IMG/VR virus record: IMGVR_UViG_3300025809_000025 | Location: 1-54,707 of that record | Length of the DNA stretch: 54,707 nt | Source of the DNA: a virus | Taxonomy: Duplodnaviria > Caudoviricetes | Reading direction: 5' to 3' (one strand) | Part shown: positions 3,278 to 39,150 of the stretch, piece after piece | Layout: every line of letters starts with the position of its first letter | Position numbering within the stretch: the first letter of the stretch is position 1 | Made by a program: the position numbers and the translations under genes | Notes under the pieces: model-generated | Told to the model about the DNA's origin: nothing | Database searches by the model: none | What the model saw: only the letters and a program-made list of their open reading frames with translations

Positions 3278-3283
3278 AAGCTA

Positions 3284-5211: not shown

Positions 5212-5223
5212 AAGTGTCTCGCT

Positions 5224-5248
5224 AAAAAGGGGGAGGAAAACCTCCCCC
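5224..5248 (-). terminator. Rho-independent terminator after the major capsid gene
   Basis: Minus strand GGGGGAGG-TTTT-CCTCCCCC followed by TTTTT. Confidence 0.85.
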
Positions 5249-5263
5249 GATCATTAGTCGATC

Positions 5264-6121: not shown

Positions 6122-6140
6122 TTTATTACCTCACAAGAGA

Positions 6141-7061: not shown

Positions 7062-7097
7062 TATTAATTTCCTTCGAGTCCCACAATGGGATATTCG

Positions 7098-7382: not shown

Positions 7383-9252
7383 GAGCTACTTGCTCCTCAG
7401 TCTTAATAATTTCGTCGGGGTCAATATCCATGCTTTGAGCAATGTCTCGAAGAAGCTGTGTGCGCTTAACAACGCCACTTTGATCTTCCCCAACAATTGA
7501 CAAGAACTGAAGTAAACGCTGACTCTGTATCTCTTTCTGAACGAGAGAGGTACTGCCGCGTGCAACAATTCGCAAGTCACCCTTTGACTTCTCGTTAGTT
7601 CCAAACTCCATATTGAAGTGAAACAAAGCCTCAATCATTGGCTCAATCAAGAAGTCATCAATATTTTTAATTGTGCTTTTAAGTGCAATGTTTGCTGCAC
7701 CCATAAGCATAGACATACCTGTTGCTGTTTTATTTAGACCTTGTGTCTGCTCACCATGTGTATAGCTAGGTAGGCTAGTAGTCTCATCAGCAAATCTTCG
7801 GAATATCTCCACAATCTGGTTCAGTCCATTAGCGTTCGCTACTGGCTGATACCATCTAACAGCAGGCATAGAACCGTCTCCACCCTCACGCAAGAATACT
7901 CGCCAAGGGTGGATGTCTGTCGGGTCTTCTCCTGCTGCAAGCAAGTCTGTATTCACCTCGACCATAGGACCAGAAGACAAAGCCATGTTGTCTAGCCAGA
8001 TTCTTGTTGCGGTATTCATAGTTCCCTGAGAATCACGCATCATACGAGGCACGCCTGTACCCCAGAACTGATGGGGGCTGCGCTCATACGGGAAAATATG
8101 GTATGGAATTTTGTAACCAGTAATCGGGTTTAGCATTACTTTTAATACTTTCCCGTCACATACCCACACACAAGCAGAGTAATCATCAGAAAGATCTGCA
8201 TCTTCCTCCAACTCTATGCCGTGCTCTTCTAGCTCGTAACCATCTACAGTGCCCCAATACTCCATAACAACGAAGCGATTGGACTCAGAGTTCTCATGTA
8301 TACCAGCAATTCTGCGTCGTGTAGTCTCGTGATCTTCCTCTGTATGATTACCGTTACGGTGAATCTTAAGAAGATACTTAACCATGTCGCCATCAAACTG
8401 GGGTAGGTCAGCCAGATCACGCATTTGGCGGCGTGTTAAAACGTGACGACGGAACAATCCATCGCAGTCATCTAGCGTTGTGCAATAAGGGTCGGGATAT
8501 AGATCGAAGATGCTGACGCTTTCTACATCAGGAGCAACAGTTTCAACAACGCTGAGCGCATAACCCTGCTCACCGCTCTCTGGATCAAGCATCTTAGAGT
8601 AAGACTGCTTCTTATCTATCCGCACAGTACCAGCTTTTACGGCACCTGAACCAAAGATACATGCTTCTAACATGCTTTCTTTGAGCTTCATTTCTGCGTT
8701 GGTCTCTACAAGCTGGTCTTCAATGTCTACAGTCATAGACTCGGCAGCTTTTTTAGCCACCTCTATTTCTAATTCTAAAAACTCTTCCTCTAGCTCTGCC
8801 ATCCTTGCGGCTACCAAGTCCTGATTCATCATCGGATCTTGACCGCTTGCCATCATGATCTGCTCCATAGCCATCTGGCGCATTTGCATCGCCTTAAGAG
8901 GATCGATCTGAGGGACTGGGGTAGGGTCTACAGAAAAGAAAACATCGCCGTGCTGAAACAACAGGTCTATTATTCGACTGTAAGCAGCCATCACTTTTGT
9001 TCGTGTTAGCCCGACGAATACTTTTGATCGCGAACCAGACGCAGCATCTAGGCGTGCAAGTACATCAGGCTCATAAATGCCCTGATATTGGCGTAAGTCT
9101 TTTAGCCACTCGTTTTCTGTTTCTTTACGAGCGTCTTTATACTCTTGAAAAGTTCCGGCAAGACGAGAACCCAGACTCTGCATACTTTGCGCTTGCAAAC
9201 CATCTGGCTCTTTCTCTAGTTCTTCTTCACCTTCATACTCAGCATCATGCAT
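7267..9252 (-). CDS. Portal protein
   Basis: 661 aa between terL and scaffold; SIFDLYPDP, FWGTGVPRMMRD, KTATGMSMLM motifs; Gln-rich tail. Confidence 0.9.
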   Translation of the reverse strand: MHDAEYEGEEELEKEPDGLQAQSMQSLGSRLAGTFQEYKDARKETENEWLKDLRQYQGIYEPDVLARLDAASGSRSKVFVGLTRTKVMAAYSRIIDLLFQHGDVFFSVDPTPVPQIDPLKAMQMRQMAMEQIMMASGQDPMMNQDLVAARMAELEEEFLELEIEVAKKAAESMTVDIEDQLVETNAEMKLKESMLEACIFGSGAVKAGTVRIDKKQSYSKMLDPESGEQGYALSVVETVAPDVESVSIFDLYPDPYCTTLDDCDGLFRRHVLTRRQMRDLADLPQFDGDMVKYLLKIHRNGNHTEEDHETTRRRIAGIHENSESNRFVVMEYWGTVDGYELEEHGIELEEDADLSDDYSACVWVCDGKVLKVMLNPITGYKIPYHIFPYERSPHQFWGTGVPRMMRDSQGTMNTATRIWLDNMALSSGPMVEVNTDLLAAGEDPTDIHPWRVFLREGGDGSMPAVRWYQPVANANGLNQIVEIFRRFADETTSLPSYTHGEQTQGLNKTATGMSMLMGAANIALKSTIKNIDDFLIEPMIEALFHFNMEFGTNEKSKGDLRIVARGSTSLVQKEIQSQRLLQFLSIVGEDQSGVVKRTQLLRDIAQSMDIDPDEIIKTEEQVALEQQQQQQLLQAQMQQAAIAGDPAAQGNAGMGSPSGLN

Positions 9253-9255
9253 AGA

Positions 9256-10836
9256 TTAATAACCCGTCACAGGATCTAACGATTTAAAACGTTTTTGTAT
9301 AGTCCGGTGCCGAGGTCTCGGCATAGAAGCAAGTCCATGCAGGGCAATAGCATAAGCCATCACCCTGTCATCATAACATCCATTTTGGGAATTGTAACTC
9401 CCTTTATCATCAATGATGTAAGTTCGCAACTCATTTAATAATTCTATATCTGCAACACCGCTCTCTCCCTGCCTAAGCAGCGCCGCTAAATTGTCAACGA
9501 TTAATGGTTTTGTTTTGCTTGTCGTTAGAAAGCCTCCGCGTTTTGTCAAGCGATCTCCGTAGGCACCATCGACAGAACTCTCTACAAATAAATTTGAATA
9601 ACCTAAATCTTGCATTTTACGAAGCGTACCAAGACCGTGGTTGTTACGCTCAACTATTACATATGCAGTGTTATAGCGTTTTCCCAACATTGCTACTAGG
9701 GCGCCATAATCAAATGGATCTATGTGTCCGTGCCAACAGGCTACTTGATTGCCTAACGAGTCAAGTACTTGGGCGCAACTATAATCGCCATAGGCGAGAC
9801 CTTCCGCAACATCCACGCCAATGACGTAAGCTTCCTCTCTGGAGGGGGAATACCATTCTTGATAGTTGCCGTGTTCACGCTCAATTAAACTACCGTCAAT
9901 AATGTCGCCTTTAAAGTCTGCGGTGTAACAATTATTTTCACATTGAGATATCGCGGACTCTTCTACGAAACAACGACCGGAGGTTAAAAATGCTTCGAGC
10001 GGGGTACTAGGGTATTCCTGACGGAATAAATCTGTCCCACCTAACTCATCTAGTTTGGCGCGTCTAAATGAAAGTTGCTCATCGTCCAATCCATACTTTT
10101 GAGCCAGATCATATTCTTCTGGTGTAGCAACAAAGTAGGGCGATACTTTTTTTCTATACTCTGGCATCCAGTACCAAGGAATAAAGCAAGTAATCCACTC
10201 GGATTCGCCTCGAAGCGACTTCATTACCTGATCGTAGAACCATCCACCGGCACCATTGGCAGTACTCTCTAGAATTACCTCAGTGTTCTTACCACCGACA
10301 GTCTGTAATAGACCTGCGACTATGTCTGATCCTTGTGGGTAGAACGCCACTTCAGAGCCGTGGACAAATCGATTTGTTTGTCCTCGTCCCGTTTGGGTTG
10401 ATCTTGCTGTTCCGACCCTGTATCGCGAATTGATGTCATCAAAAACCAACGTTGACGCCGACTGACTAGCGAGCGGCGGCTTAAATGCCGGATGCGGGAC
10501 ATTGTCATAAAAGTATCTCACCATGTTAAAAATTGCGTTAGTAGATTCGGCAAGATGCGACAGTACGAATGCGTTAGCATTGCGATTCTGCGTGACTTTC
10601 CAGAAGTTTCTGCCCTGTGTGTACGTCGATATTCCGGTTTGGCGAGCTTTCAGGACCAATGCGCGGATATTTCCCTGATCTTTTAGCTGCTTTTCAAGCA
10701 TGGCATGGACATGTAACTGTGCAGCATTTAGGACAAAAGGCTTGGATTCACCCTCTTTTGTCACGATTTTCAGCATATTCTTACTATATAAAGGGAAGTT
10801 ACCCTTCAATTTGCGAGCTACCTCTTCAATTTCCAT
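9256..10836 (-). CDS. terL: Terminase large subunit
   Basis: Walker A variant LKARQTGIST, Walker B VHGSEVAF, ESTANG coupling motif, nuclease motifs IGVDVAEG and DDRVMA. Confidence 0.95.
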   Translation of the reverse strand: MEIEEVARKLKGNFPLYSKNMLKIVTKEGESKPFVLNAAQLHVHAMLEKQLKDQGNIRALVLKARQTGISTYTQGRNFWKVTQNRNANAFVLSHLAESTNAIFNMVRYFYDNVPHPAFKPPLASQSASTLVFDDINSRYRVGTARSTQTGRGQTNRFVHGSEVAFYPQGSDIVAGLLQTVGGKNTEVILESTANGAGGWFYDQVMKSLRGESEWITCFIPWYWMPEYRKKVSPYFVATPEEYDLAQKYGLDDEQLSFRRAKLDELGGTDLFRQEYPSTPLEAFLTSGRCFVEESAISQCENNCYTADFKGDIIDGSLIEREHGNYQEWYSPSREEAYVIGVDVAEGLAYGDYSCAQVLDSLGNQVACWHGHIDPFDYGALVAMLGKRYNTAYVIVERNNHGLGTLRKMQDLGYSNLFVESSVDGAYGDRLTKRGGFLTTSKTKPLIVDNLAALLRQGESGVADIELLNELRTYIIDDKGSYNSQNGCYDDRVMAYAIALHGLASMPRPRHRTIQKRFKSLDPVTGY

Positions 10837-11278
10837 GATTATTTACCACCGCCTTACACCACCAGACAAAGTCATGGTCATCCATATCGTTTCTCATTAA
10901 ATTTATTCGGGCGCAAACAAACCTAATATTGCCTTCGACGTAACCTTTATCCGTATCAATACGGTCTGGGCTCGCACATAAATCAGAATAATCAGTACTT
11001 GTGTGCATAGGTATGTTAGAGATGGCGCAAATGCCCCTTTGCTGCTCGTATAAGCTCATTAAGTACTCAAGTGATACTAGGGTGCCCGCATAATTCTTTT
11101 GCTTGTGACGTTGTTTAATGCTCGTTAATCGGGCTCCAAGAAAAAGCTCTACCGTCGAGTTCTGTCTATCTCTATTCCTTGATGTCCGGCACTTGTTACA
11201 AGCTCCACGATTTGCAGAAAAGTTACCTATTGATTTGGTAATCCCGCATATGTTGCACTCTTTACTTTCAGCCGCCAC
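10826..11278 (-). CDS. Putative HNH-like endonuclease with N-terminal Zn finger
   Basis: CNIC...CNKC, then QRGICAIS...SPDRID...GYVEGNIRFVC...NLM pattern. Confidence 0.65.
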   Translation of the reverse strand: MAAESKECNICGITKSIGNFSANRGACNKCRTSRNRDRQNSTVELFLGARLTSIKQRHKQKNYAGTLVSLEYLMSLYEQQRGICAISNIPMHTSTDYSDLCASPDRIDTDKGYVEGNIRFVCARINLMRNDMDDHDFVWWCKAVVNNHGN

Positions 11279-11637
11279 TCCATATTCCTCGTAATCTCCT
11301 CAAACCTTGCTACAGCTTTACGGCTATTACTCACAGCGACTCGATCTCCCATCAACCCAGTCCCTAGCCCTATACACCCTTGAACGTCTTTAGAAAAGTT
11401 GGCTGCGTGAATCAGTATGTATGTTCTATCCGCAACATCTTTGATATGCCATGTCTCACCAAACCGTGGGGAGTCTCTCCAGCCCGTGTCGTATGTCCCC
11501 TCAGGAATACACGAGACGTTTGGAGCGTTATCTAACCAAGGGCGCTCTATCGTATAAAAGCGCTCTCCGTTTAAATCTATAACACCTAGAGTTCCCTCAG
11601 GGTGATATGCAAATCTTTTAAGCTCTACCTCAACCAT
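11227..11637 (-). CDS. DUF5675-family protein (candidate endolysin / L,D-transpeptidase-like)
   Basis: TLG...YTIERPW..N....SCIPEGTY...RTYILIHAAN...DVQGCIGLG motifs. Start moved to ATG 11637 because the longer ORF overlaps another gene. Confidence 0.75.
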   Translation of the reverse strand: MVEVELKRFAYHPEGTLGVIDLNGERFYTIERPWLDNAPNVSCIPEGTYDTGWRDSPRFGETWHIKDVADRTYILIHAANFSKDVQGCIGLGTGLMGDRVAVSNSRKAVARFEEITRNMEWRLKVKSATYAGLPNQ

Positions 11638-11797
11638 TATTATCGGAACCTCTTTTTCGAGCCCGAACATCGTTTCGCTCTTTTCGGTTGAGCTTAGAAT
11701 CTCCAAAGATTCGATCGAAGTTTTCATTAAACTTTTTAGTATCTTCAGGGCGGCGGTTGTCGCCCTTGCTATAAAGTGTTTCACGAGAGTTCTTCAT
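11630..11797 (-). CDS. Small basic hypothetical protein (55 aa)
   Basis: MKNSRETLYSKGDNRRPEDTKKFNENFDRIFG...; ATGA overlap with the upstream gene. Confidence 0.65.
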   Translation of the reverse strand: MKNSRETLYSKGDNRRPEDTKKFNENFDRIFGDSKLNRKERNDVRARKRGSDNNG

Positions 11798-11925
11798 TTC
11801 TTTTTTGCCGTCCTAGCCGCACGCTTAAAATCCTTATTAGTCGGAGCGCCTTTGTCACCCGCATTCCGCATTTTTTTTCCAGCTTTTTTCTTGGCGTTGA
11901 TGTTTGCGTATAGACCGTTGCCCAT
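11794..11925 (-). CDS. Small Lys-rich protein (43 aa)
   Basis: MGNGLYANINAKKKAGKKMRNAGDKGAPTNKDFKRAARTAKKK; tightly coupled to its neighbours. Confidence 0.7.
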   Translation of the reverse strand: MGNGLYANINAKKKAGKKMRNAGDKGAPTNKDFKRAARTAKKK

Positions 11926-11927
11926 AA

Positions 11928-12050
11928 TCAGCTACCTTTCTTAGCTTTTGGTTTAGCTTTCGGTTTAACTGCGGCTTTCTTCGCCGCGATTTTTGCTTTT
12001 GCTACACCAGCTTTCGTATATGCAAACTTCTTACCGTTGACCATTGGCAT
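11928..12050 (-). CDS. Small Lys/Ala-rich, histone H1-like protein (40 aa)
   Basis: MPMVNGKKFAYTKAGVAKAKIAAKKAAVKPKAKPKAKKGS; starts 2 nt after the upstream stop. Confidence 0.7.
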   Translation of the reverse strand: MPMVNGKKFAYTKAGVAKAKIAAKKAAVKPKAKPKAKKGS

Positions 12051-12052
12051 AA

Positions 12053-12364
12053 TTAGCTTCCTTTTTTCCACTTAGTTGATGATGACTTGGTTTTGGAGGG
12101 CGCCCATTTAGTTTTTGCTGCCCAATAAGCTGCACTCATCTTGCCCTTGCTTATGTTCTTAGCATGACGACTCTCAAATGCTTTTCTTTGACCAACCGTC
12201 TGATTTGTTTTTACACCCTGCTGTCCAAATCTGATGGTCTTGACCTTGTCACCCTCTTTGGCAACAACAACATGAGACTTAGTAGGGTGGGATGGAGTCC
12301 GCTTAGGCTTGTTATAACCACTGACCCCCGCACTTTTTAGTCTAGAATCCTTCTTATCTGCCAT
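12053..12364 (-). CDS. Conserved highly basic phage protein
   Basis: MADKKDSRLKSAGVSGYNKPKRTPSHPTKSHVVVAKEGDKVKTIRFGQQG...SAAYWA; recognisable marine-phage family. Confidence 0.75.
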   Translation of the reverse strand: MADKKDSRLKSAGVSGYNKPKRTPSHPTKSHVVVAKEGDKVKTIRFGQQGVKTNQTVGQRKAFESRHAKNISKGKMSAAYWAAKTKWAPSKTKSSSTKWKKGS

Positions 12365-12365
12365 A

Positions 12366-12524
12366 TCAAACCTTCCGATCAATGAATCTGCTGTGTTTTT
12401 GATAACCCTTGCACTTGTTACACCACACCAAAGCTCTATAAGGCTCTACTTTGTAGATGCAGGTGCAAATCGCTGCCCTACTTCTTTCTATTTTTTGTAT
12501 TTGTGTAACGGTGGGTACTCTCAT
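12366..12524 (-). CDS. Small Cys-containing hypothetical protein (52 aa)
   Basis: MRVPTVTQIQKIERSRAAICTCIYK...WCNKCKGYQ...; stop lies 1 nt before the next ATG. Confidence 0.45.
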   Translation of the reverse strand: MRVPTVTQIQKIERSRAAICTCIYKVEPYRALVWCNKCKGYQKHSRFIDRKV

Positions 12525-12769
12525 AAGGACCGCCCCCCCTAATCAACTAGGTGCAAATGCACTTCATCATCCGAAGAAATCTCTATCAGCGTGTAAACAG
12601 CATCCTCAACCTGATCAGCTAAGTAATAAAGGCTCCCACCAAAGCGCAAAGAGGTAACATGAGGGACAATAAACGCCTCAAACGTCAATTCATCCATATC
12701 TAAGTATTCAAGTGCCGTAACACGACGCATTAATAGCTTTCTCATTTTTTGCCTCGGTACTCTCATAAG
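12514..12769. repeat. 14-bp direct repeat GGTACTCTCATAAG
   Basis: Identical copies at 12514-12527 and 12756-12769, each next to a C or G homopolymer run. Confidence 0.8.
12539..12766 (-). CDS. Putative excisionase-like / winged-HTH DNA-binding protein
   Basis: LLMRRVTALEYLDMDELTFE...FGGSLYYLADQVE resembles MerR/Xis-type HTH. Confidence 0.45.
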   Translation of the reverse strand: MRVPRQKMRKLLMRRVTALEYLDMDELTFEAFIVPHVTSLRFGGSLYYLADQVEDAVYTLIEISSDDEVHLHLVD

Positions 12770-12943
12770 ACCCGTGGGGGGTCAAAATACGGTGGTGGGG
12801 GCTGGCATGTCCCCCATGGAACCACACTCTCGATCGTCGTCAGAAGCCAGAAACTACCCCTCCCCCTACCTTCTATTACGCATGACCCGTGACGCCACAC
12901 ACCACCTTTAACAGACCATTTGCCCTATGAGCAGTTGGTCGAT

Positions 12944-13402
12944 CTAGTGTAAGTCCTTGATATCGTTAGGGTCTTTAACCTCTAACTCAACCAAATCTTC
13001 CTCATCCAAGTCTAAGTCAGCCAGAAAGGAGCCATTAAACTGCACAACTTCCTGTTTCTCTGGGGCAATCCATCCCTCAGCCTTGAATAATTGCTCAATA
13101 GCCCTGAGGCGGTCAGAATCCTTCTCTGCTAGCGTTCCCAGTTGCTCCAATGCATTGATCCACTGATCCCTTCTCTGCTCTGTATCCTGTGCCATATCGT
13201 CTCTAATCGCCTCTATTGCCGCCTTTACACTAATATTTCCCAACAACCGGAATGCTTGGTGATTTGCGTGTGCATACCCTGCGTGCTCTGCCGCTCTGGT
13301 CGCATTGCCTGAAGTAACGTAGTAATCCACAAACTTTTGCTGTCTTAGGTTTAATGGCTTTACTGTTTCGGTTGGCTTTGTTGTATCTCTCTCTATGTTC
13401 AT
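12944..13402 (-). CDS. terS: Terminase small subunit
   Basis: LNLRQQKFVDYYVTSGNATRAAEHAGY...RLL..V: Terminase_2 N-terminal HTH. Confidence 0.9.
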   Translation of the reverse strand: MNIERDTTKPTETVKPLNLRQQKFVDYYVTSGNATRAAEHAGYAHANHQAFRLLGNISVKAAIEAIRDDMAQDTEQRRDQWINALEQLGTLAEKDSDRLRAIEQLFKAEGWIAPEKQEVVQFNGSFLADLDLDEEDLVELEVKDPNDIKDLH

Positions 13403-13459
13403 CTGTATGTTCCCCTATAGGAGAAGTCGGAATTGGGGGGGTTTAGGTTTTTCCCCGCG

Positions 13460-13732
13460 CTATAAAAATTTCGCGATCGCCGTGATACATGCCGCGAATA
13501 TGATCCATGCCGCTCGTTCTGCAACCATGCCCTTACCTGCTGACTTGGCAATGTCTTGCTCAACCTGCCGGATGTTGCCCTCCAACTGGTTAAGGCGCCC
13601 TTCGTGTCTGTCCAGTCGCTTGTGACTACTAACCAGTCGCTCATCTATGCGAGCCAATACAGCAACGGTATCGCTTAATTGATCAAGTTTTTGCTCGATC
13701 CTGTCGAATCTCTTCTCAATACTCAATTCCAT
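13460..13732 (-). CDS. Coiled-coil protein with C-terminal TM helix (holin/XhlA-like)
   Basis: RFDRIEQKLDQLSDTVAVLARIDERL... ending AAWIIFAACITAIAKFL. Confidence 0.6.
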   Translation of the reverse strand: MELSIEKRFDRIEQKLDQLSDTVAVLARIDERLVSSHKRLDRHEGRLNQLEGNIRQVEQDIAKSAGKGMVAERAAWIIFAACITAIAKFL

Positions 13733-13825
13733 ACCTTTTGCCGCTTTGAATGTAGGTTAATAATCTGAACGTGTTACCAATTGTAACATTTTAACTGCTT
13801 GAGTAAATTATTTTATGCTGAAGTA

Positions 13826-13854
13826 TTGACAAGCGATTCTCTAGAGATTACGGT
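13826..13854 (+). promoter_or_regulatory. Early sigma70-type promoter
   Basis: TTGACA-17 nt-TACGGT with an AT-rich upstream tract, at the strand-switch point. Confidence 0.65.
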
Positions 13855-13957
13855 GCGAACCATGAAGTGTTGATTAGACACTGATTCCGACCCAGAGGTC
13901 ATGGGGGCGCTCGGAGAATCCAAGGATGGTTTCAATGAGTGAAGCGGCAAGACCCAC

Positions 13958-14013
13958 TAAGTGTCTGCATCTACCTGATGCACTGATGAGGGCAAGCAAG
14001 CCCGAAACACTTA
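13958..14013 (+). ncRNA. Hammerhead ribozyme, type III
   Basis: UAAGUG-UC^-UGCAUC[UACCU]GAUGCA-CUGAUGA-GGGC[AAGCAA]GCCC-GAAA-CACUUA: full catalytic core and three perfect stems; GUC cleavage after 13965. Confidence 0.95.
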
Positions 14014-14031
14014 CTGCCGAGGAGGCACAGC

Positions 14032-14208
14032 ATGACCATTCAAGTATTGATTAAAAACAATTACGGAACCCAAGCCGTCTACCCTACCTGCACTGTCGGT
14101 GAAACCTTTGCACAGATCGCAGGAACCAAGACTTTGACCGATGAGACCAGAGCGCTAATGAAGAGACTGGGCTATCAATTTGAAGCCAAGATGGAGGTGT
14201 CGCTGTGA
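14032..14208 (+). CDS. Early hypothetical protein (58 aa)
   Basis: MTIQVLIKNNYGTQAVYPTCTVGETFAQIAGTKTLT...LGY; GAGGAGG RBS. Confidence 0.75.
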   Translation: MTIQVLIKNNYGTQAVYPTCTVGETFAQIAGTKTLTDETRALMKRLGYQFEAKMEVSL

Positions 14209-14309
14209 AACTATTTAAAGCGTTTATCGAGACTAACCTAGCAATCTATCTAGTTGGCGCTTGGGTGACGGTTACCGTCATCTATATCGCCTTTAGCAAC
14301 CTAGCCTGA
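14205..14309 (+). CDS. Small membrane protein (34 aa)
   Basis: GTG start overlapping the upstream TGA, GGAGG RBS; MKLFKAFIETNLAIYLVGAWVTVTVIYIAFSNLA. Confidence 0.55.
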   Translation: MKLFKAFIETNLAIYLVGAWVTVTVIYIAFSNLA

Positions 14310-14320
14310 GGAGGCTCACC

Positions 14321-14587
14321 ATGTCCCAAACATCAAGAAAGATCACCTACTTTCAACACAGCAACGGTGTTGATTTCGCTTACGAGGCAAACAACCCTGC
14401 TGATAGTTGGCTACCAGTCGTCAACTATCCGCACAGAGTCTGGGTCAGTTGCAACCCAATTAATGACTCAGGTTGGCGATATGCCAACGTTAAAAAGACT
14501 GTCGCCTATATCGTTGTCGATGAGGACGACCACGGTCAGCCAGTGATCGAGAAGTGGTCAATTAAGAATCACCGTAACTTCCATTGA
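14321..14587 (+). CDS. Early hypothetical protein
   Basis: 88 aa, strong RBS; RYANVKKTVAYIVVDEDD.G.P..EKW.I motif. Confidence 0.75.
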   Translation: MSQTSRKITYFQHSNGVDFAYEANNPADSWLPVVNYPHRVWVSCNPINDSGWRYANVKKTVAYIVVDEDDHGQPVIEKWSIKNHRNFH

Positions 14588-14660
14588 GTAAGCACTGAGA
14601 GCGCCTTCGCTGAGGGCGTTCAACTGTATTTATTCAACTCAGCCTGAGGAGGCAACCATT

Positions 14661-15530
14661 ATGAAAAAATATGACGAACTATTTGAGAAAGTAACCAACC
14701 GAATTATCCAGAACCTAGAGAGCGCTGATCGATGGCAGAAGCCGTGGGCTTCAATCGCTGACGGATCAGTACCCCATAACGCCAGTACAGGCAGACCCTA
14801 TTCTGGGATCAACTTCTTTAACCTTGGGTTTGAGTCTGAAAAGTGGGGGAACACTGGATGGCTAACCTACAAACAAGCTACCGCTCTGGGTGGCACTGTA
14901 CCCAAGAACAGCGCAGAGAATGGCGGCTGTGAGTATGTCTGGTTTATGGCTAAGTCGATCTATAAAGATAAGCAGACTGGCGATGACAAGATGGGATTTA
15001 TCAACAAGTGCTTCCCAGTATGGAATGTTGCCCAGATCGAAGGGCTAGAGGGTGGCAAGCAATACACCCCACCATCAGCGGGTACAGGTGCAGTCAACAG
15101 ACTGGCTGATAGCCTCAACATCAATCTTCAATATGGTGGTGATAAAGCTTGTTTCATCCCATCCATTGACACCATCAAGATGCCATCAGTTGATGCCTTT
15201 ACGACTGAGGCAAATCATGACGCAACCCTGCTTCATGAGATGGTCCATTGGACTGGTCACTCTGACCGACTAAAGCGCCAGATCAATAACAGCTTTGCAT
15301 CTGAAGGCTATGCCTTTGAAGAGTTAGTTGCTGAGTTAGGTGCGGCAATGGGTGGTGCTCTGTTAGGTATCCCCTACGAGGGACTGCAACACGAGTCCTA
15401 TATTAAGTCATGGCTTAAGTCTCTTAAGGATGACCCCAGACATATCGTTAAGGCGGCTAAGCAAGCGTCTAAGGCTGTTCAGTATCTAGATGAGAACGGT
15501 AGTACTGACCTATTGGAGCAGGCGGCATAA
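14661..15530 (+). CDS. ardC: ArdC-family antirestriction protein (ssDNA-binding domain + zincin metallopeptidase)
   Basis: W.KPW...P.N..TGRPYSGIN...WLTYKQA...WNVAQ N-domain; HEMVHWTGH..RLKR...YAFEELVAELG...HESYIKSWL. Confidence 0.9.
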   Translation: MKKYDELFEKVTNRIIQNLESADRWQKPWASIADGSVPHNASTGRPYSGINFFNLGFESEKWGNTGWLTYKQATALGGTVPKNSAENGGCEYVWFMAKSIYKDKQTGDDKMGFINKCFPVWNVAQIEGLEGGKQYTPPSAGTGAVNRLADSLNINLQYGGDKACFIPSIDTIKMPSVDAFTTEANHDATLLHEMVHWTGHSDRLKRQINNSFASEGYAFEELVAELGAAMGGALLGIPYEGLQHESYIKSWLKSLKDDPRHIVKAAKQASKAVQYLDENGSTDLLEQAA

Positions 15531-15564
15531 GGGTGAAAGATTTATTTTCCCCGACTCAAAAAAT

Positions 15565-15622
15565 TCTAGCTGATGAGCAACTGGATGGTGACCAGTCGAA
15601 ACGCCCAGTGGGGCGTCCTAGA
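15565..15622 (+). ncRNA. Hammerhead ribozyme, type I
   Basis: UCUAG-CUGAUGA-G(CA)ACUGG[AUGGUGA]CCAGUC-GAAA-CGCCC[AGUG]GGGCG-UC^-CUAGA: full core; GUC cleavage after 15617. Confidence 0.93.
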
Positions 15623-15650
15623 TAACCAACAATCCTGAGGAGGATTAAAT

Positions 15651-15956
15651 ATGCAAAAAGCACACTTGCACCTCATTAAATGGGGCTTAGAAAAAGGATA
15701 CACAATTGAGGTTGATATTGAAGGTCATCATGAGTATCGCGGTACTAGCTACAAGGAAGCAAAGGAAGCCAGTGAAGCCGGAGATATGGGCTGTATATAT
15801 CTTATCACTGGTCAAGCCGAAACAGACTACTCCTACTTTGGCTATATGCACGAGTGGAAGCAAAATCCTGATGAAATAATCTATGACTACGGTCTTGATG
15901 CTGTCTCTGAAGAATGGGCGCGTGATTACGATAAGCATTGCGAGGTTGCGGAATGA
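15651..15956 (+). CDS. Early hypothetical protein
   Basis: 101-aa acidic ORF with GAGGAGG RBS. Confidence 0.75.
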   Translation: MQKAHLHLIKWGLEKGYTIEVDIEGHHEYRGTSYKEAKEASEAGDMGCIYLITGQAETDYSYFGYMHEWKQNPDEIIYDYGLDAVSEEWARDYDKHCEVAE

Positions 15957-16222
15957 AGTCTACCACCAAGCGAATTGATGAAGCTAAAAGTCGTATCGAA
16001 CAAGCTAGCGATGAGATTGATCGAGCCAAAGAGGCAATAATATTGTTCGTCCTCGTAAATCGAAACCGAAAACGAGTTGCTGAATTGTCAGGCGTACACC
16101 TAAACACAGTGTCTGATTTTGTCAGCGGTCGGAGAGGCGGCATACGTCTAGACACCTTGATCAAGATCGAAAAAGCTTGCCACGTCATCAAAGAGAGTCC
16201 GTTTTTTATGCCGAAGAGTTAG
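15953..16222 (+). CDS. XRE/Cro-type HTH protein
   Basis: KRVAELSGVHLNTVSDFVSGR....RLDTLIKIEKA; ATGA overlap start at 15953. Confidence 0.75.
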   Translation: MKSTTKRIDEAKSRIEQASDEIDRAKEAIILFVLVNRNRKRVAELSGVHLNTVSDFVSGRRGGIRLDTLIKIEKACHVIKESPFFMPKS

Positions 16223-16307
16223 TCGGAGTAAACAGCAGGGAGCTACCTGAATGGTAGTTTCTTAGTGTTAATTCCAACACTACAACTAATCCTGAGGAGG
16301 ATTAATC

Positions 16308-16475
16308 ATGGAAACAATTGATGCAACGCCAACATGGCAAGAAACAGCAGTAATGCTTACGCAGATACTGGAATCGGGCAGTGACAAGTCTTGGGCACGC
16401 GATGAGATTATTCGAATGGGCAAGATCATTGATCAACAGCAGGCATTCATTAAGCAGTCAAAGGAGGTGGCGTGA
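16308..16475 (+). CDS. Early hypothetical protein (55 aa)
   Basis: METIDATPTWQETAVMLTQILESG...EIIRMGKIID; GAGGAGG RBS. Confidence 0.7.
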   Translation: METIDATPTWQETAVMLTQILESGSDKSWARDEIIRMGKIIDQQQAFIKQSKEVA

Positions 16476-16765
16476 TGGAAGTTTCAAAGAAGCGTCATCA
16501 AGAAATAATTAACCTAGCTAACACGCTATCAAACGATGATTTATGTACTTTGATTAATGCGGTTAGTAGTAGGTTAGAAGTTTACTTAGGCACAATCGGC
16601 TTAGTGTGTATTTCAACTGAGGTTGAATACGCTCACATGAACGGTATGACAGTACAAGTCAATACCACAATGGCTCAGCTGGATGATATGCGTGAAGACG
16701 ATCAGATCCAACATGCAATGAAAATGTATGAGCTGCGTAATCCAGAAAAGGAGGTGGCGCGATGA
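16472..16765 (+). CDS. Early hypothetical protein
   Basis: 97 aa, AGGAGGT RBS, coupled to both neighbours. Confidence 0.7.
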   Translation: MMEVSKKRHQEIINLANTLSNDDLCTLINAVSSRLEVYLGTIGLVCISTEVEYAHMNGMTVQVNTTMAQLDDMREDDQIQHAMKMYELRNPEKEVAR

Positions 16766-17142
16766 GAGATTCAACTTATATGATCGACCTTAACGTCGTT
16801 ACCTTCGATGCATTCTGCAAGCTAGATGCGCTAGACGAAACCTTTATAGGCACCCCCGATTATATGGGGGTTGCTTACTTTTGGGGTCATGGAGTGAAGC
16901 ATTACCTTCGAGAAGCTTCTCAAGCACAGAGACGTAGAATCCATAAAAAATGGCTTGAACAAGGACTTGATCTGTACGACGACAGTGACGACCACTTTAG
17001 AGTTATAGGTGAAGTGATGCCGCGCTATCGTCAAGAGATACAGAACAGTCTGAAGGTCAACGGCTTTGAAAAGCACCGTGTACCCGAATGGAACAGGGTC
17101 AAGTTTGGAAACAATCCACCAGTGACAGCGGAGGTAGCGTAA
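16762..17142 (+). CDS. Early hypothetical protein
   Basis: 126 aa, AGGAGGT RBS, ATGA overlap. Confidence 0.7.
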   Translation: MRDSTYMIDLNVVTFDAFCKLDALDETFIGTPDYMGVAYFWGHGVKHYLREASQAQRRRIHKKWLEQGLDLYDDSDDHFRVIGEVMPRYRQEIQNSLKVNGFEKHRVPEWNRVKFGNNPPVTAEVA

Positions 17143-17321
17143 TGAACAAATTTAAATGTGAGCAATGCGACTTCTTTGGCAATGATGATGAAATTGTCAT
17201 TGTTAAAGAGGTTGATATGGAACCATACGGAGACAGAAAGGTTGAAAGGGCAAGCTACTACTATCACTGCCCAGACTGCAACTCTGACGACCTCACAGAA
17301 TACGCTGAGGTGAATTGGTAA
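17142..17321 (+). CDS. Small Zn-ribbon protein
   Basis: MNKFKCEQC...CPDCNSDDL; TAATG overlap, GGAGGT RBS. Confidence 0.7.
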   Translation: MNKFKCEQCDFFGNDDEIVIVKEVDMEPYGDRKVERASYYYHCPDCNSDDLTEYAEVNW

Positions 17322-17418
17322 ACCCCGAAATTGCGCTAAGGATGGCGCTCTTTTTCGTTAGTTTTTCAGGTGCAACCCGAGGGTTGTATCTAATGAACTA
17401 ATCAAAGAGGAAAGCAAC

Positions 17419-17757
17419 ATGTTTTTATTTAAAGAAACGCTAGAACACGCAGGCATGGCAGACACCAGAACACAGAAGCTTGCCGAAGCACTCAACTTAC
17501 TGCACTCAGCTATATCGCAGTGCGATCTAGGCAACAGAAAAATCTTTGCGGACAACTTCCCTTACGCTGTTAGGTCTGCCGTCGAGTACGCAAAGATAGA
17601 GGAGCTAAATCAAGACTTGTGGGGGATTAGCGCACTGGATCGATACCGACAAGACACTGAGCTTGCAGAGTGGATCTCTGAATACTCAGAGTATGAAGAC
17701 AGCATCCAGACTCATCCAATTAGAGATAATGTATTCGATATGGGAGACTACCGATGA
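17419..17757 (+). CDS. Hypothetical protein
   Basis: 112 aa, GAGG RBS downstream of a long hairpin. Confidence 0.65.
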   Translation: MFLFKETLEHAGMADTRTQKLAEALNLLHSAISQCDLGNRKIFADNFPYAVRSAVEYAKIEELNQDLWGISALDRYRQDTELAEWISEYSEYEDSIQTHPIRDNVFDMGDYR

Positions 17758-17885
17758 TTATTGAAATCATTTTTACAATTGTATTTTTTTCCGCAATGGC
17801 TGTGCTTTTAAGTGGAGCTTTTCTAATCGTTCAGGACAAAGAAAGACAATACCAAGAGAGAAGGAATCAACGTGACAACAAATGA
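17754..17885 (+). CDS. Small membrane protein (43 aa)
   Basis: MIIEIIFTIVFFSAMAVLLSGAFLIVQDKERQYQERR...; ATGA overlap, GGAG RBS. Confidence 0.6.
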   Translation: MIIEIIFTIVFFSAMAVLLSGAFLIVQDKERQYQERRNQRDNK

Positions 17886-18063
17886 AGAACTGCAACACCT
17901 TATGCGAAAGCACAATCTGTCTCAGACTGATGTTTCAAAAATGCTAGAGATTCCCTTGGACACTGTAAAAAACTACAGCCGAACCGCTAACCGTAGTAGA
18001 GTGCCCAAGGTAGTCATAATAGCTTTGCGTTTGAGTATTCAACTAAGAGACAAAACGGAATGA
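17872..18063 (+). CDS. XRE-family HTH protein
   Basis: LMRKHNLSQTDVSKMLEIPLDTVKNY....VP. Confidence 0.7.
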   Translation: MTTNEELQHLMRKHNLSQTDVSKMLEIPLDTVKNYSRTANRSRVPKVVIIALRLSIQLRDKTE

Positions 18064-18439
18064 GAAAGACCCACTTTGGATGCCGGTCCTGAGGACCATG
18101 AATTTGGACCGGCTCCATCCCTTCAAGCAAGATACATTCAAGTATCCCCTCCCTGCTAAACCAATACTCCCCCTTACCTGTATCAATCACCCAGAAATCA
18201 GCTAGCGACACGCTGAATGCAGACGGCTTGTTGTGGTAGTACTCGACCACAATGTTGCCTGTCTTTTGCGACATCGGATCGTACTTAACCTCAACAGTTT
18301 TACCTATCTCAGGAATCTCAATATCCCAGTCGGGATGATACCCCTCAGCCTTCCTAGCTTGAGGGAATACCAATCTCAACCGATCAAGTAAGTTACGCTC
18401 AATCGCCTCGCCTCGAATGAGGTCTTTAGCGAATCCCAT
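18014..18439 (-). CDS. PD-(D/E)XK nuclease-like protein
   Basis: GEAIE...WDIE......VEVKYD...TGNIVVEY motifs. Confidence 0.65.
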   Translation of the reverse strand: MGFAKDLIRGEAIERNLLDRLRLVFPQARKAEGYHPDWDIEIPEIGKTVEVKYDPMSQKTGNIVVEYYHNKPSAFSVSLADFWVIDTGKGEYWFSREGILECILLEGMEPVQIHGPQDRHPKWVFLIPFCLLVEYSNAKLL

Positions 18440-18716
18440 TTGCTCTGTCTTTTTTCCACAGCATCTCAACGCCAATCTTTACTAAGTCTTTACTGTGACT
18501 GGGCGTTGCATTATCTGGAATGCTGTCTATTGCCGCTCGCCTTTCATCCTTGCTTGGCAGTTCCAGTATGTTGCTTGGAAGGTAATAGGGTAGGGTTGCT
18601 TTTGCTAGATCATGAAAGTCTGGATCTAGGTTGTCCTCTATATACTGGAGGCACTGGGGGTAGTATGTTTTTTTCGCGGCTAATTTTATTTCAGCATTGA
18701 ACTTTGCAGGCTTCAT
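18426..18716 (-). CDS. Hypothetical protein
   Basis: 96-aa ORF overlapping its neighbours in the operon. Confidence 0.65.
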   Translation of the reverse strand: MKPAKFNAEIKLAAKKTYYPQCLQYIEDNLDPDFHDLAKATLPYYLPSNILELPSKDERRAAIDSIPDNATPSHSKDLVKIGVEMLWKKDRANGIR

Positions 18717-19107
18717 TGGGAACCTCTAGTAATTCTCTCATTAACAAGATGCCTGTCTCCCAATCCACCGTGACTGTTTCGACAGGTTTAAATGAGTATT
18801 CCTTGAATGTCCGTAACGGAAATACCATGCGTATCGGTTGGCGGTCGTACTTGTATATCAGCACCGGAATATAATCATCCCCTGCTGAAGTCTTTGCTTG
18901 CTCCCACCACTCCGGCTTGTACCAGTGACCAGTCGCGTATCGTTTGGCTTCGATCATTAAGTTGTGAAACTCAATGTCAGCCTTGCCGCAAGTCTGGTAT
19001 TGATCTAGGTTTCGCTTTAGGTGATTAGCGCAGGAGCCGAACTCATCTTGAAATTTCTTGATGAGCTCACGCTCAAACGCATGACCCTTAGCGCGACCGT
19101 TTATCAA
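18691..19107 (-). CDS. Holliday-junction resolvase-like PD-(D/E)XK protein
   Basis: NGRAKGHAFEREL...ADI.....IEAKR...WWEQA...PVLIYK; probable TTG start at 19107. Confidence 0.75.
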   Translation of the reverse strand: MINGRAKGHAFERELIKKFQDEFGSCANHLKRNLDQYQTCGKADIEFHNLMIEAKRYATGHWYKPEWWEQAKTSAGDDYIPVLIYKYDRQPIRMVFPLRTFKEYSFKPVETVTVDWETGILLMRELLEVPNEACKVQC

Positions 19108-19349
19108 CTCTCTTCCTCTTCTAACCACTGCAAGTAAACTCTTGCCTTTTGCAATGACTGGACCTTTCCGTTTGGATGATTTTCATATCGCCAAACATAC
19201 TTCTGAACATTACCTTTGAGGTAACCTTTGAACTGCTCAGATGTCATAGAGGATTTGATAGCTTCGATGCACTCAATCGCATCGTCTGATTTCTTATAGT
19301 GTTTGGGCTGATTTACAGCGTCCCACTCTTGAGGTGTTGCATTAACCAT
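19104..19349 (-). CDS. DUF3310 (SaV / T7 gp1.7 nucleotide kinase-like) protein
   Basis: DAVNQPKHY....IECIEAI...GYLKGNVQKYVWR...L.KA..YL. Confidence 0.85.
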   Translation of the reverse strand: MVNATPQEWDAVNQPKHYKKSDDAIECIEAIKSSMTSEQFKGYLKGNVQKYVWRYENHPNGKVQSLQKARVYLQWLEEEES

Positions 19350-19653
19350 TATTTTTCTCCGTTATCTTTTGTTTGGTCCAGTCGAGCAGTTCCATTTGTG
19401 TTCCGTAACGCTCTTCGAACCTCCGTTTAAAAGGGTGGCGACTTGTGTAACTAACATTGTCTTCACCGCCACGATGATGCTTGTAACAAAGGGGTATCGA
19501 CTTAAGGTGCGCCCCTTCTTTAGTTTTTCCGTCGATGTGATGCACCTCAGCAGGCGTGAATACGTTGAACTGACGGTGACATACACAACATCCAAACTGA
19601 GTGATGTCATCCATCCATTTCTTATCAACTGCATTCGCACCACGTCCTTTCAT
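19342..19653 (-). CDS. Ref-family (recombination enhancement) HNH nuclease
   Basis: GCCVC...PAEVHH...IPLCYKHHR...FEERYGTQ.ELL. Confidence 0.8.
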   Translation of the reverse strand: MKGRGANAVDKKWMDDITQFGCCVCHRQFNVFTPAEVHHIDGKTKEGAHLKSIPLCYKHHRGGEDNVSYTSRHPFKRRFEERYGTQMELLDWTKQKITEKNNG

Positions 19654-19982
19654 GTACCGTAAACTCTCCGCTCAGCTCTCTCACTGGCTAGCATTGACTG
19701 CCAGACTTTGAACTCAACTTCAGCTGCCAACATCTCTGACTTTGCCGCCGCTAACATTCCCTTAGCCTTGCCTCTAGCAAGACGGGCTTCATACACATTG
19801 GCGTCTTCATCAGAAGCTCTTAATTGAGCGGCATTAGTCTTAGCTCCTTTTGCTTCAGCCATGACCATCGTTTGTGCGACAATTCTTTTCTCATCTGCAT
19901 CAGATTTCGATAGCTGATACTCAGCCTTACCAACCGCTGTGCCTGCTTCTCGAATCTTCATTGCGAAGTCTTCTTGATCCAT
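19650..19982 (-). CDS. Hypothetical coiled-coil protein
   Basis: 110-aa helical ORF coupled to the primase-helicase. Confidence 0.65.
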   Translation of the reverse strand: MDQEDFAMKIREAGTAVGKAEYQLSKSDADEKRIVAQTMVMAEAKGAKTNAAQLRASDEDANVYEARLARGKAKGMLAAAKSEMLAAEVEFKVWQSMLASERAERRVYGT

Positions 19983-21818
19983 CTAGTTCTCCTTTGAATA
20001 GTTAATGTAATAACGAGCCTTGCCGTTCTTTCTGTCTCTGTACTGACAGCACTTATTGTCGAACTCAAAGCCAACTTTGCCTTCGTACATACCATTACGA
20101 TTCTTTAAAACCTCTAGGTACATATCCCATTGCCTTGTGTACTGCTCATCAGGCTCTTCACCTAACATTTCAGCCTGCTCAATCTGCTCTGTCTTGCGCT
20201 TGTTTTTCCACACGGATATGAATCCATCAGCAAGGTCTGTAATTGACCCCGAACCCTTAACGTCATACTTGTTTGGTGCTGAGTACTCTGACTCACCCTT
20301 TCGGACGTGGGTCACAATGAATATCGTGACTGGAAATGACAGCTTGAAGTTGACAAGCTTTTCTATGAATCTCTGCTGACCCTCATAGTCATCTTGCCTA
20401 ACCATATTGGTTAAAGAATCGACAACGAATGTGGTAATGCCGTAACGTCGATATGCATATTCAAAGCAGGACATTAGGTCTTCAGGTTTCGGAGTTAACT
20501 TATCAACAAACAGCCACAGGTTTGGGCACATCCACTCAAGCAGTTTCTTTCTATAGGGTTGGGGTGGTTGCTCTGATCCTGCCGCCTGACGAACCATTCG
20601 ACCCATCGTTGCTTTAGGTGTCATCTCCATCGAAGCGATTAGTACTTTCTGTTGCTGTTCAACAGCGTTGAGTGCAAGTTGATTTAGCCACATTGATTTA
20701 CCGTGACCATTGATGCCGCACACACCCCAGAGTTCATTGGGTCTGAACTTGATGTCTTCTTCGTCTAACTTCGCCCAACCAGAGCCAAAGCCCTGAGTGT
20801 CATCAGCCTTGTTTTCAAAGTAGTCATCTATCTCTGACTCAAAATCTAAGACAGATCTAAGAGTCTCAGGATCTTTCCACCGAGCCTCTTCATATGCACA
20901 CTTGAGCATCCATTGAGCCTGCTCATAACCTTCCTTCTGCAAGAGCTCATTAATGTCTTTGGTAGGCAGGTTGACTCGATAGCATCGATCACCAAGTCGC
21001 TGCATTATTTCTGCGGCGGCAAGCTCCCCCTGCTCATCCATATCAGTAGCGATAAGGATCTCTTCGAAGCGTGCTAGGTTCTCGTATTCATGAGCTATCC
21101 ACTTAGTCTGCTTTGCACCTTTACCTCCACCCATTGGTACAGATAGAGCAGGGAAACCTAACTCACCACAAGCAATAGCATCCCACTCACCCTCTGTAAT
21201 CCAGATCTTCCTAACAGTGTCAGGGATTGCCTGCCAACCAAACAGGATTGGCTTTAGATCTTTCTGGGTAGATGGGTTGCCATCATGATTGATCGGCTTA
21301 GTCTTTATGAATGTCTCTTTGCCGTCTGTATCAAAGAAAGGAAACACTACATCCTGACCGCCTCTAGCATCTGTCTCATAGATCTTGTATCGGAAGCACA
21401 CCTCTCCTACATCTTTGAATCCTCTCTTCTCCATGTATTCATGAAGGTGTTGATGCTCATTCCTTTCGGGAGGTTTAGGTAGGGTGTAATTTTTCTTTTC
21501 CGCCGGAGCAACTTTTTTTGCAGGCGTGTTGTCCCTGATACCATATCTTTTCTTTGCCCAGTCCATAGCATTGACTAAAGAAAGACCTTGGCTGTACATA
21601 ATCAAGTCAAGAAGGTCACCACCTTCTCCGGTGCTGAAATCCATCCACTTACCGCACTGATCACCGTTGAGATAGACAGACATACTTCTACCTCTTTCAC
21701 CCTGTATCGATCCTATCTTGTAGCATCCAGACTCGACTCGACCGTCAGGATATAACTCGTTGCAAATGCCTGCGGCATGAGGTGCTAGGTTCTGCGCTAG
21801 CGTTTTAACATCCATCAT
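19983..21818 (-). CDS. DNA primase-helicase (Toprim + SF4/DnaB-like helicase)
   Basis: Toprim ITEGEWDA and DMDEQG; Walker A GINGHGKS; SMEM; VDSL; VTHVRK; DVKGSGSITDLAD; KNRNG. Confidence 0.92.
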   Translation of the reverse strand: MMDVKTLAQNLAPHAAGICNELYPDGRVESGCYKIGSIQGERGRSMSVYLNGDQCGKWMDFSTGEGGDLLDLIMYSQGLSLVNAMDWAKKRYGIRDNTPAKKVAPAEKKNYTLPKPPERNEHQHLHEYMEKRGFKDVGEVCFRYKIYETDARGGQDVVFPFFDTDGKETFIKTKPINHDGNPSTQKDLKPILFGWQAIPDTVRKIWITEGEWDAIACGELGFPALSVPMGGGKGAKQTKWIAHEYENLARFEEILIATDMDEQGELAAAEIMQRLGDRCYRVNLPTKDINELLQKEGYEQAQWMLKCAYEEARWKDPETLRSVLDFESEIDDYFENKADDTQGFGSGWAKLDEEDIKFRPNELWGVCGINGHGKSMWLNQLALNAVEQQQKVLIASMEMTPKATMGRMVRQAAGSEQPPQPYRKKLLEWMCPNLWLFVDKLTPKPEDLMSCFEYAYRRYGITTFVVDSLTNMVRQDDYEGQQRFIEKLVNFKLSFPVTIFIVTHVRKGESEYSAPNKYDVKGSGSITDLADGFISVWKNKRKTEQIEQAEMLGEEPDEQYTRQWDMYLEVLKNRNGMYEGKVGFEFDNKCCQYRDRKNGKARYYINYSKEN

Positions 21819-39141: not shown

Positions 39142-39150
39142 GATAAATAC

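Follow-up and report, generated by a model that had tools for sequence, protein, structure and literature searches.

A conserved Shine-Dalgarno hairpin, apparently tuned in stability, beside candidate hammerhead ribozymes in an operon of marine phages

A short stem-loop enclosing the Shine-Dalgarno (SD) sequence recurs before five genes of the virus record IMGVR_UViG_3300025809_000025 (IMG/VR; Caudoviricetes), which raises the question of what such a hairpin does at a ribosome-binding site and why it is repeated along one operon. The window analyzed here is the whole record of 54,707 bases (estimated completeness, 100%), so that counts within the window are also genome-wide counts. The five stem-loops were found at all positions given by an earlier reading of the sequence alone (hereinafter referred to as the original prediction), and are listed below with their predicted folding energies and the start codons that follow.

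14015..14027, + strand: SD hairpin 1, variant class, 4-bp stem, loop GAGGA, -5.6 kcal/mol; ATG at 14032, 4 nt on
14303..14316, + strand: SD hairpin 2, 5-bp stem, loop GAGG, -6.8 kcal/mol; ATG at 14321
14642..14653, + strand: SD hairpin 3, 4-bp stem, loop GAGG, -6.2 kcal/mol; ATG at 14661
15631..15646, + strand: SD hairpin 4, 6-bp stem, loop GAGG, -6.0 kcal/mol; ATG at 15651
16287..16304, + strand: SD hairpin 5, 7-bp stem, loop GAGG, -7.5 kcal/mol; ATG at 16308

The hairpin was the predicted minimum-energy fold at each of the five sites, both alone and in the mRNA context, and it ended 3-7 nt before the ATG in all cases. In the predicted fold, the loop contained GAGG and the stem took in the SD's 3' AGG, in accordance with the original description of an SD that is both presented and sequestered. 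In the variant class represented by hairpin 1, which was also found in relatives, CC and GG flank the GAGGA loop. The sequence CCTGAGGAGG had four matches in the window against 0.10 expected, all on the + strand between 14305 and 16300, and none of 100 shuffled sequences reached four. GAGGAGG alone was not enriched (seven matches, 5.46 expected), and five of its seven matches were the hairpin sites. The unusual part is the upstream complement, not GAGGAGG itself.

Among 59 gene starts scanned, two besides the five had an SD-containing hairpin of -4.5 kcal/mol or below (12944-13402 and 25862-26122), both of different sequence. The claim that the hairpins are restricted away from structural genes was borne out in this genome, since all 28 gene starts of the two structural arms lacked an SD hairpin at this threshold. 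In this genome, as in complete relatives, the motif was confined to one operon beside a divergent promoter region. The complete relatives carried 11 sites each, at 36831-42665 in a 53.7-kb record and at 42127-47992 in a 49.5-kb record, in each case clustered in a single region of about 6 kb and on one strand. The compensatory variation proposed within the genome stood in part: one clear double change was present (G:C versus U:A at the fourth pair) and the other differences were stem extensions, the strong covariation evidence coming from relatives instead.

Relatives were gathered by protein-seeded searches, which yielded 64 related loci on marine phage contigs. The fourth pair, lying outside CCU/AGG, was formed in 78 of 79 unique sites (74 Watson-Crick and four G:U), with G:C in 29, A:U in 26, U:A in 15, C:G in 4, and A:C in none. 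At the orthologous ArdC site (hairpin 3), this pair was G:C, U:A, or A:U, depending on the phage. The distance from the SD end to the start codon was 5-8 nt in 73 of the 79 sites. In a second set of 91 further unique sites, taken from contigs found with a DNA pattern, the fourth pair was formed in 73/79 sites with a start codon versus 3/12 without one. Hairpin copies within any one contig were all on one strand, the coding strand. In addition, CCU was located upstream of 77 of 97 GA-GGAGG SDs but of none of 86 other GGAGG SDs, suggesting that the loop GAGG and the 5' arm travel together. In the required pairs, G:U was tolerated and A:C was not, as expected if the element acts as sense-strand RNA. 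The covariation indicates that the pairing is under selection and that the hairpin is a real and conserved element, acting at the RNA level on the sense strand. Matches across IMG/VR to the pattern GCCTGAGGAGGC plus ATG were mostly single copies in unrelated contigs, among the matches listed; as their frequency was that predicted by chance in so large a collection, they were set aside as uninformative.

The conservation also included positions in the loop. The 10-nt core was invariant in phages whose ArdC proteins are 67-99% identical, and the first loop position was always G and never A, despite the better pairing with 16S rRNA that A would offer. The invariant loop G and the strictly conserved 10-mer keep a trans-acting factor in play. 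Such a factor had been proposed in the original prediction, in which the hairpin is a translational operator where a host CsrA/RsmA-type protein or a phage protein binds GGA and shuts off all the hairpin genes together. The limitation of the motif to one operon is consistent with an operator, and the hairpin does contain AGGA; in the variant class (site 1), the whole GGA lies within the loop. CsrA sites present GGA in the loop of a short hairpin and usually number at least two per target. The hairpins of the window likewise are short, contain GGA, and overlap the SD, but each gene and mRNA has a single site, and in the main class GGA is only partly in the loop, its A being paired (4/5 sites) and only GG remaining unpaired. 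PHROGs and Pfam scans of 74 predicted phage products revealed no CsrA, RegA-like, RegB-like, or other RNA-binding family. Further, a stem that varies from 4 to 7 bp at constant free energy (dG) suits a melting hairpin better than a fixed protein-binding shape. Co-ordinated shut-off by CsrA or a phage protein thus found no support, and we regard an operator of this kind as unlikely.

The phage protein that had been named as a possible partner of the hairpins (25464-25865, + strand) is a conserved protein of 133 aa, apparently all-beta, with an invariant CxxC. It had no PHROGs or Pfam family and no PDB sequence match, and only close marine homologues were found. Its AlphaFold models (pLDDT 30 and 46) were too poor for a fold search, and its Atlas scores were at noise level, including a row of 0.78 for a PemK-like mRNA interferase cluster, which can serve only as a lead.

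The GGAG at the loop-stem junction might instead be the target of a nuclease, if a RegB-like or host endoribonuclease cut there and inactivated early mRNAs. RegB of phage T4 provides a precedent, as it cuts GG/AG in the SDs of early genes (PMC3014915), and GGAG-containing SDs are likewise found here. In the favored RegB substrate, GGA is unpaired and the G after it is constrained (PMC3014915), and the variant hairpin, with its loop GAGGA followed by a paired G, has exactly this geometry. In contrast, the 3' side of the strong RegB consensus is A-rich (RAYARAA), a context replaced here by the stem, and secondary structure protects against RegB (PMC3014915), whereas the SD here lies in a stable stem. 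Together with the lack of a RegB-like family in the PHROGs and Pfam scans, these differences set the window hairpins apart from T4 RegB targets and make cutting of this type very improbable.

A second regularity concerned the length of the stem. The stem stopped at the fourth pair in 65 of 72 G:C- or C:G-closed sites, and a fifth pair was present in 57 of 63 A:U- or U:A-closed sites (Fisher p = 4e-23). Within the A:U class, the 57 fifth pairs compare with 35.8 by within-class permutation, and none of 5000 permutations reached 57. The mean dG of 67 unique hairpins was -5.76 kcal/mol (sd 0.83), and -3.72 kcal/mol (sd 1.71) after permutation of the 3' flanks; the window hairpins range from -5.6 to -7.5 kcal/mol (predicted). 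Stem length offsets composition, keeping the predicted stability near -6 kcal/mol, and these statistics point to selection on hairpin stability. The duplex predicted between this SD and the anti-SD of a canonical 16S tail was -12.1 kcal/mol, compared with -6.0 and -8.7 kcal/mol for two ordinary SDs of the same phage. A duplex of about -12 kcal/mol, minus the cost of opening the hairpin, leaves an effective SD strength that would be moderate.

A narrow stability band would also be expected of an RNA thermometer or a coupling device, in which a hairpin of about -6 kcal/mol is gated by temperature or opened by ribosomes terminating just upstream. At site 2, the motif's own TGA (14307-14309) is the stop of a 34-codon frame starting at GTG 14205 and thus closes an upstream frame. 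However, an open frame of at least 30 codons ended at the motif TGA in only 15 of 78 sites, and most sites follow non-coding ribozymes or terminator-like hairpins, so we give a thermometer or coupling device the lowest probability of the explanations considered. The motif TGA as a general stop for upstream genes was rejected on the same count of 15/78.

The ribozymes in question, hammerheads, were not part of the original prediction; their core surfaced when the contexts upstream of the hairpins were listed. The hammerhead core consensus is CUGANGA ... GAAA ... with a UH cleavage triplet. The two candidates of the window and two terminator-like hairpins, which precede four of the five SD hairpins, are as follows.

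13959..14012, + strand: type III hammerhead candidate, operon leader, canonical parse; predicted cleavage after C13965
13966-13982, stem I; 13983-13989, core CUGAUGA; 13990-14003, stem II; 14004-14006, GAA; 14007-14012, 3' strand of stem III (parts of the type III candidate)
15562..15631, + strand: type I hammerhead candidate; own covariance model 78.3 bits, E 4.5e-18; predicted cleavage after C15617
15565-15569/15618-15622, stem I; 15570-15576, core; 15577-15597, stem II; 15598-15601, GAAA; 15601-15616, stem III; pseudoknot from loop II to the 3' tail, partner at about 15624-15627 (parts of the type I candidate)
14599..14621, + strand: terminator-like hairpin, GC-rich, tail T-rich; 20 nt before hairpin 3
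16237..16263, + strand: terminator-like hairpin before hairpin 5, with a second hairpin next to it (about 16263-16282)

All conserved core letters were present in the type I copy of the window when aligned to RF03152, and the corresponding columns were invariant in 14/14 seeds. The covariance model of this type was built on 14 copies, 13 of them from relatives and picked for perfect stems I-III, and it found 85 matches, all on the gene strand. In the seed alignment, 98.3% of cells were paired and 16 of 21 pairs had double changes, compared with 26-39% pairing in slid controls; the pseudoknot was 91% paired, with compensatory changes in three of four pairs. For the type III candidate, the core did not vary among nine aligned versions, and both stem I and stem II had compensatory changes. 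An Rfam search of the whole window at the gathering threshold gave no match, and the type III candidate (13959-14012) matched no Rfam model at E values up to 10. The copy of one relative (L016) exceeded the threshold of RF00163 (Hammerhead_1; 36.7 versus 34 bits), as the sole match in 14 loci.

Four of the hairpins themselves contain the sequence CUGAGGA (14306-14312, 14644-14650, 15635-15641, and 16292-16298), which fits the hammerhead core pattern CUGANGA. A second hammerhead core at these positions was rejected, as there was no in-register stem II or GAAA, and the closing pairs covary across the loop. We regard the likeness as coincidental, though microhomology between ribozymes and hairpins is conceivable. 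In a subclade of relatives, another conserved leader precedes the first hairpin of the operon, with a long-range helix GUUGAUUUG ... CAAAAUCAA (L011, about 3410-3470; L014, about 1740-1800; L015, about 1425-1485; L016, about 2800-2860; L026, about 3210-3272). The leader of L026 holds CUGAUGAG ... CGAAAUCAA and may represent a further hammerhead variant or some other structured RNA.

Hammerheads and hairpins were closely coupled across the relatives. A hairpin followed 47 of 56 unique type I copies, starting 11-21 nt past the cut in 45 of the 47, and all nine type III copies. Conversely, the sequence upstream of 90 unique hairpins with a start codon was a type I hammerhead in 45, a type III hammerhead in 9, a terminator-like hairpin in 14, and another sequence in 22, so that 54/90 hairpins came after a hammerhead. 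The two complete relatives had six and seven type I copies, which shared a region and a strand with their 11 and 11 hairpins. In the window, hammerheads precede sites 1 and 4 and terminator-like hairpins precede sites 3 and 5; hairpin 1 begins 2 nt past the type III hammerhead, and hairpin 4 begins 13 nt past the predicted type I cut and persisted when the predicted 3' cleavage product was folded. Among other hammerheads of IMG/VR (sample L132-L249), an SD and a start codon were located within 45 nt downstream of 48 of 84 type I matches. Judging from these layouts, hammerhead cutting just 5' of a gene start looks like a general phage habit, hammerheads beside gene starts having been noted earlier (PMC3088659), and the tuned hairpin appears to be a separate invention of this phage group, its coupling to hammerheads being specific to the clade. 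The narrow stability band, together with the hammerheads and terminator-like hairpins upstream, fits a role in cis better than an operator.

We propose, with about an even chance of being right, that the hairpin acts in cis as a thermodynamically tuned ribosome-binding module of the gene cassettes in a ribozyme-processed operon. In such a module, the upstream CCU would pair with the final AGG of an unusually long SD (UGAGGAGG) and GAGG would stay in the loop. The covarying closing pair, with extra A:U pairs as needed, would set the stability at about -5 to -7 kcal/mol, and the SD:anti-SD duplex of about -12 kcal/mol would let ribosomes open the hairpin, giving the net SD strength of a moderate site. 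The local fold may also prevent the purine run from pairing with neighboring sequence. The type III hammerhead would trim the leader and remain at the 5' end of the first mRNA, and the type I hammerheads would cut 11-21 nt 5' of the downstream hairpins, so that each processed cassette would have a defined 5' end followed by a standardized ribosome site. The sequences show the motif pattern, its covariation, the band of stabilities, the hammerhead motifs at the same places, and the mosaic break points, and their statistics support the ribosome-binding part of the proposal; from these we infer ribozyme cleavage in vivo, an effect on translation, early timing, and an insulating role.

Several observations weigh against this cis-acting module. 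Neither hammerhead of the window attained the Rfam gathering score (the type I copy reached 27.1 bits against 56.3 for RF03152, RAGATH-1-hammerhead), and the choice of seeds makes the 100% stem pairing of the 13 relatives partly a matter of construction, leaving the pseudoknot as the only unbiased test. One RNA-library contig ran across a predicted cleavage site; the RNA data consist of contigs from two RNA-labelled runs that cover small parts of the stretch, with ends and strand not readable. Three of the five window hairpins lack an upstream hammerhead. Of the 48 SDs downstream of hammerheads in other phages, two lay within a hairpin and none had this motif, suggesting that hammerheads do not need such a hairpin. 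As for the tuning, G:C-closed stems with a fifth pair numbered 7 against 7.09 by permutation of the A-rich flanks, which makes the upper stability bound less secure than the lower, and the composition may just be inherited. Because the sites share descent, the counts and p-values overstate independence. Moreover, a purely thermodynamic model leaves the invariant loop G unexplained; this G could mark recognition by a factor.

The hairpin junctions also coincided with changes of gene neighborhood. In a blastn comparison of 13600-18200 with the relatives, 22 of 72 distinct block ends were located within 10 nt of the five hairpins, which make up 3.7% of the region, part of this enrichment being expected as the motif is the only sequence common to different cassettes. 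In other phages, the gene at 14032-14208 was located downstream of ArdC; in one relative (L005), a 99%-identical ArdC gene directly followed the leader; and contigs of another metagenome changed neighbors at 15624 and 15645. Judged by these comparisons, the hairpin junctions appear to be where cassettes swap between related phages. As a separate observation, a contig of 982 nt (depth 198) from an RNA-labelled marine run had only 14586-14653 in common with the window and carried other genes on both flanks, indicating that the intergenic module of the terminator-like hairpin and hairpin 3 is common to phages with differing flanking genes.

Such junctions might mean that the motif acts as DNA, either as a recombination joint or as a repressor operator like the stoperators of Cluster A mycobacteriophages, with the RNA hairpin incidental. 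Besides the block ends and the neighbor switches in contigs from other samples, this would be in line with a temperate phage (an integrase is encoded) that has helix-turn-helix (HTH) proteins. The flanks, however, covary through all four pair types with no kept half-site, G:U is accepted where A:C is not, the SD itself forms the conserved core, all copies are on the coding strand, and the start-codon spacing is 5-8 nt in 73/79 sites; a DNA-level role is thus quite improbable. Taken together, the nuclease, DNA-level, and thermometer or coupling readings are less likely than either the cis-acting module or a trans-acting factor. As an extension of the cis-acting module, to which we give somewhat less than an even chance, the hammerhead and the tuned SD hairpin may form a natural, mobile 'plug-and-play' expression joint that also serves as a recombination site between phages; the ribozyme would define the mRNA end of each early gene cassette, and the hairpin would provide a ribosome site whose effective strength is fixed and independent of context.

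The nearest natural parallel of the hairpin is the Start-Associated Sequence (SAS), a repeat of Cluster K mycobacteriophages that contains an SD core 3-7 bp before start codons and occurs in 11-19 copies per genome in one orientation (PMC3203893). SAS is found only in the non-structural arm, beside unrelated gene families, and a role in translation initiation has been suspected (PMC3203893). Its 13-bp consensus, 5'-GGGATAGGAGCCC, with up to two deviations, has complementary outer bases (GGG...CCC) (PMC3203893). The two elements are alike in position and distribution only: the window motif, NCCTGAGGAGGN, did not match the SAS consensus 5'-GGGATAGGAGCCC, the host phylum is different, and the flanks are fixed in SAS whereas they covary here (PMC3203893). 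Neither stability tuning nor a ribozyme neighbor is reported for SAS in the available portion of that paper (PMC3203893).

For the composite of ribozyme and hairpin, the nearest parallel is the RiboJ-type synthetic insulator, built from a hammerhead ribozyme and a 3' hairpin before the ribosome-binding site (PMC7536230). In both, the hammerhead removes or separates upstream RNA (here as predicted) and the hairpin lies directly 3' of it; the leader of the operon has the RiboJ order, with the type III hammerhead kept on the mRNA, then the hairpin, then the start codon (PMC7536230). A RiboJ-like layout of hammerhead, hairpin, and translated gene was found for 47/56 type I and 9/9 type III copies. 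The phage layout differs in that it is natural and repeated within an operon, and its hairpin contains the SD instead of preceding it (PMC7536230). In addition, the intergenic copies are of type I, so that the ribozyme body would stay on the upstream fragment, and insulation here is putative (PMC7536230).

Hammerhead clusters in prophages flank single genes or short gene blocks and have pseudoknot contacts (PMC3088659). In Legionella, a hammerhead is located just 5' of ardA, an anti-restriction gene, and in haloviruses HF1/HF2 one is found 13 nt ahead of the start of an early gene; hammerhead processing of long phage transcripts has been proposed (PMC3088659). The gene-flanking position, the pseudoknots, and the anti-restriction neighbor recur here; a conserved downstream SD hairpin is not mentioned in the accessible part of that study (PMC3088659). 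The promoter/stem-loop cassettes (PeSLs) of T4-type phages are also comparable, as short motifs that border small early genes and mark shuffling joints, but they are promoter-terminator DNA motifs, whereas the element here is a ribosome-site hairpin, often with a ribozyme (PMC2839356, PMC4122927). No description of a natural hammerhead combined with a conserved, stability-tuned SD hairpin was found in the literature searched, which excluded supplements that may bear on the point.

To our knowledge, prophage hammerhead arrays have been known since 2011 with no function demonstrated. Two unexplained features, SD-associated repeats such as the mycobacteriophage SAS and hammerhead arrays, occur together in this widespread marine phage group, and a single hypothesis may cover both, namely ribozyme processing with standardized translation initiation for shuffled early or anti-defence genes. 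If so, marine phages would have evolved the logic of synthetic ribozyme insulators, and the long-unexplained phage hammerhead arrays would gain a concrete function. By analogy, the cassette design would be a natural counterpart of RiboJ-type insulators, and the joint may supply natural, ready-made insulator parts.

The operon lies between two - strand arms (1-13732 and 27341-54707) that carry head, packaging, and tail genes, including terminase, portal, major head protein, and tail fibres. The five hairpin genes open a + strand block that extends from 14032 to about 18063 and adjoin a divergent intergenic region (13733-14031). Also present are a - strand replication block with a primase/helicase and a second + strand block with a RecE-like exonuclease and the integrase. 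From its position and gene content, the hairpin operon probably comprises early genes. No + strand sigma-70-like promoter was listed in a scan of 13400-18300. Megablast of 13000-20000 against cultured phages gave no match, and the closest cultured terminases were <40% identical, indicating that the phage has no close cultured relative. At least half of the sampled words of the stretch were present in 18 DNA runs from 13 studies, mostly labelled marine metagenome. The genes that follow the hairpins, and one that lacks a hairpin, are listed below.

14032..14208, + strand: gene for a 58-aa protein, no PHROGs or Pfam family
14321..14587, + strand: gene for an 88-aa protein, phrog_23785
14661..15530, + strand: gene for an ArdC-like anti-restriction protein/zincin metallopeptidase, 289 aa; phrog_7245 (E 5.8e-60), Pfam ArdcN and MPTase-PolyVal
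15651..15956, + strand: gene for a 101-aa protein, no PHROGs or Pfam family
15953-16222, + strand: HTH gene overlapping the end of the 101-aa gene, without a hairpin
16308..16475, + strand: gene for a 55-aa protein, weak phrog_22670 match

Two small frames on the + strand of the operon were also noted. The 34-codon frame at 14205-14309, which ends at the TGA within hairpin 2, has a GTG start overlapping the stop of the preceding gene, with GGAGG upstream, and encodes a hydrophobic stretch; judged from these features, it may be a gene for a small membrane protein. The 30-codon frame at 15533-15625 occupies the place of the type I hammerhead and is unlikely to be a gene. Outside the operon, a 2643-aa protein (29723-37654, - strand) carries an LPD38 'large polyvalent protein' domain close to the C-terminus and resembles uncharacterized giant phage proteins. 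An N4-type hairpin promoter was considered for the motif and rejected, as this protein carries only the LPD38 domain and no polymerase, and the fixed SD-ATG spacing fits a ribosome site. Finally, the - strand frames at 1-1629 and 51637-54705 run off the left and right ends, and their N-terminal matches, where present, are tail-fibre-like. Circular permutation of the record is probable, with the arbitrary start cutting a single long tail gene in two.

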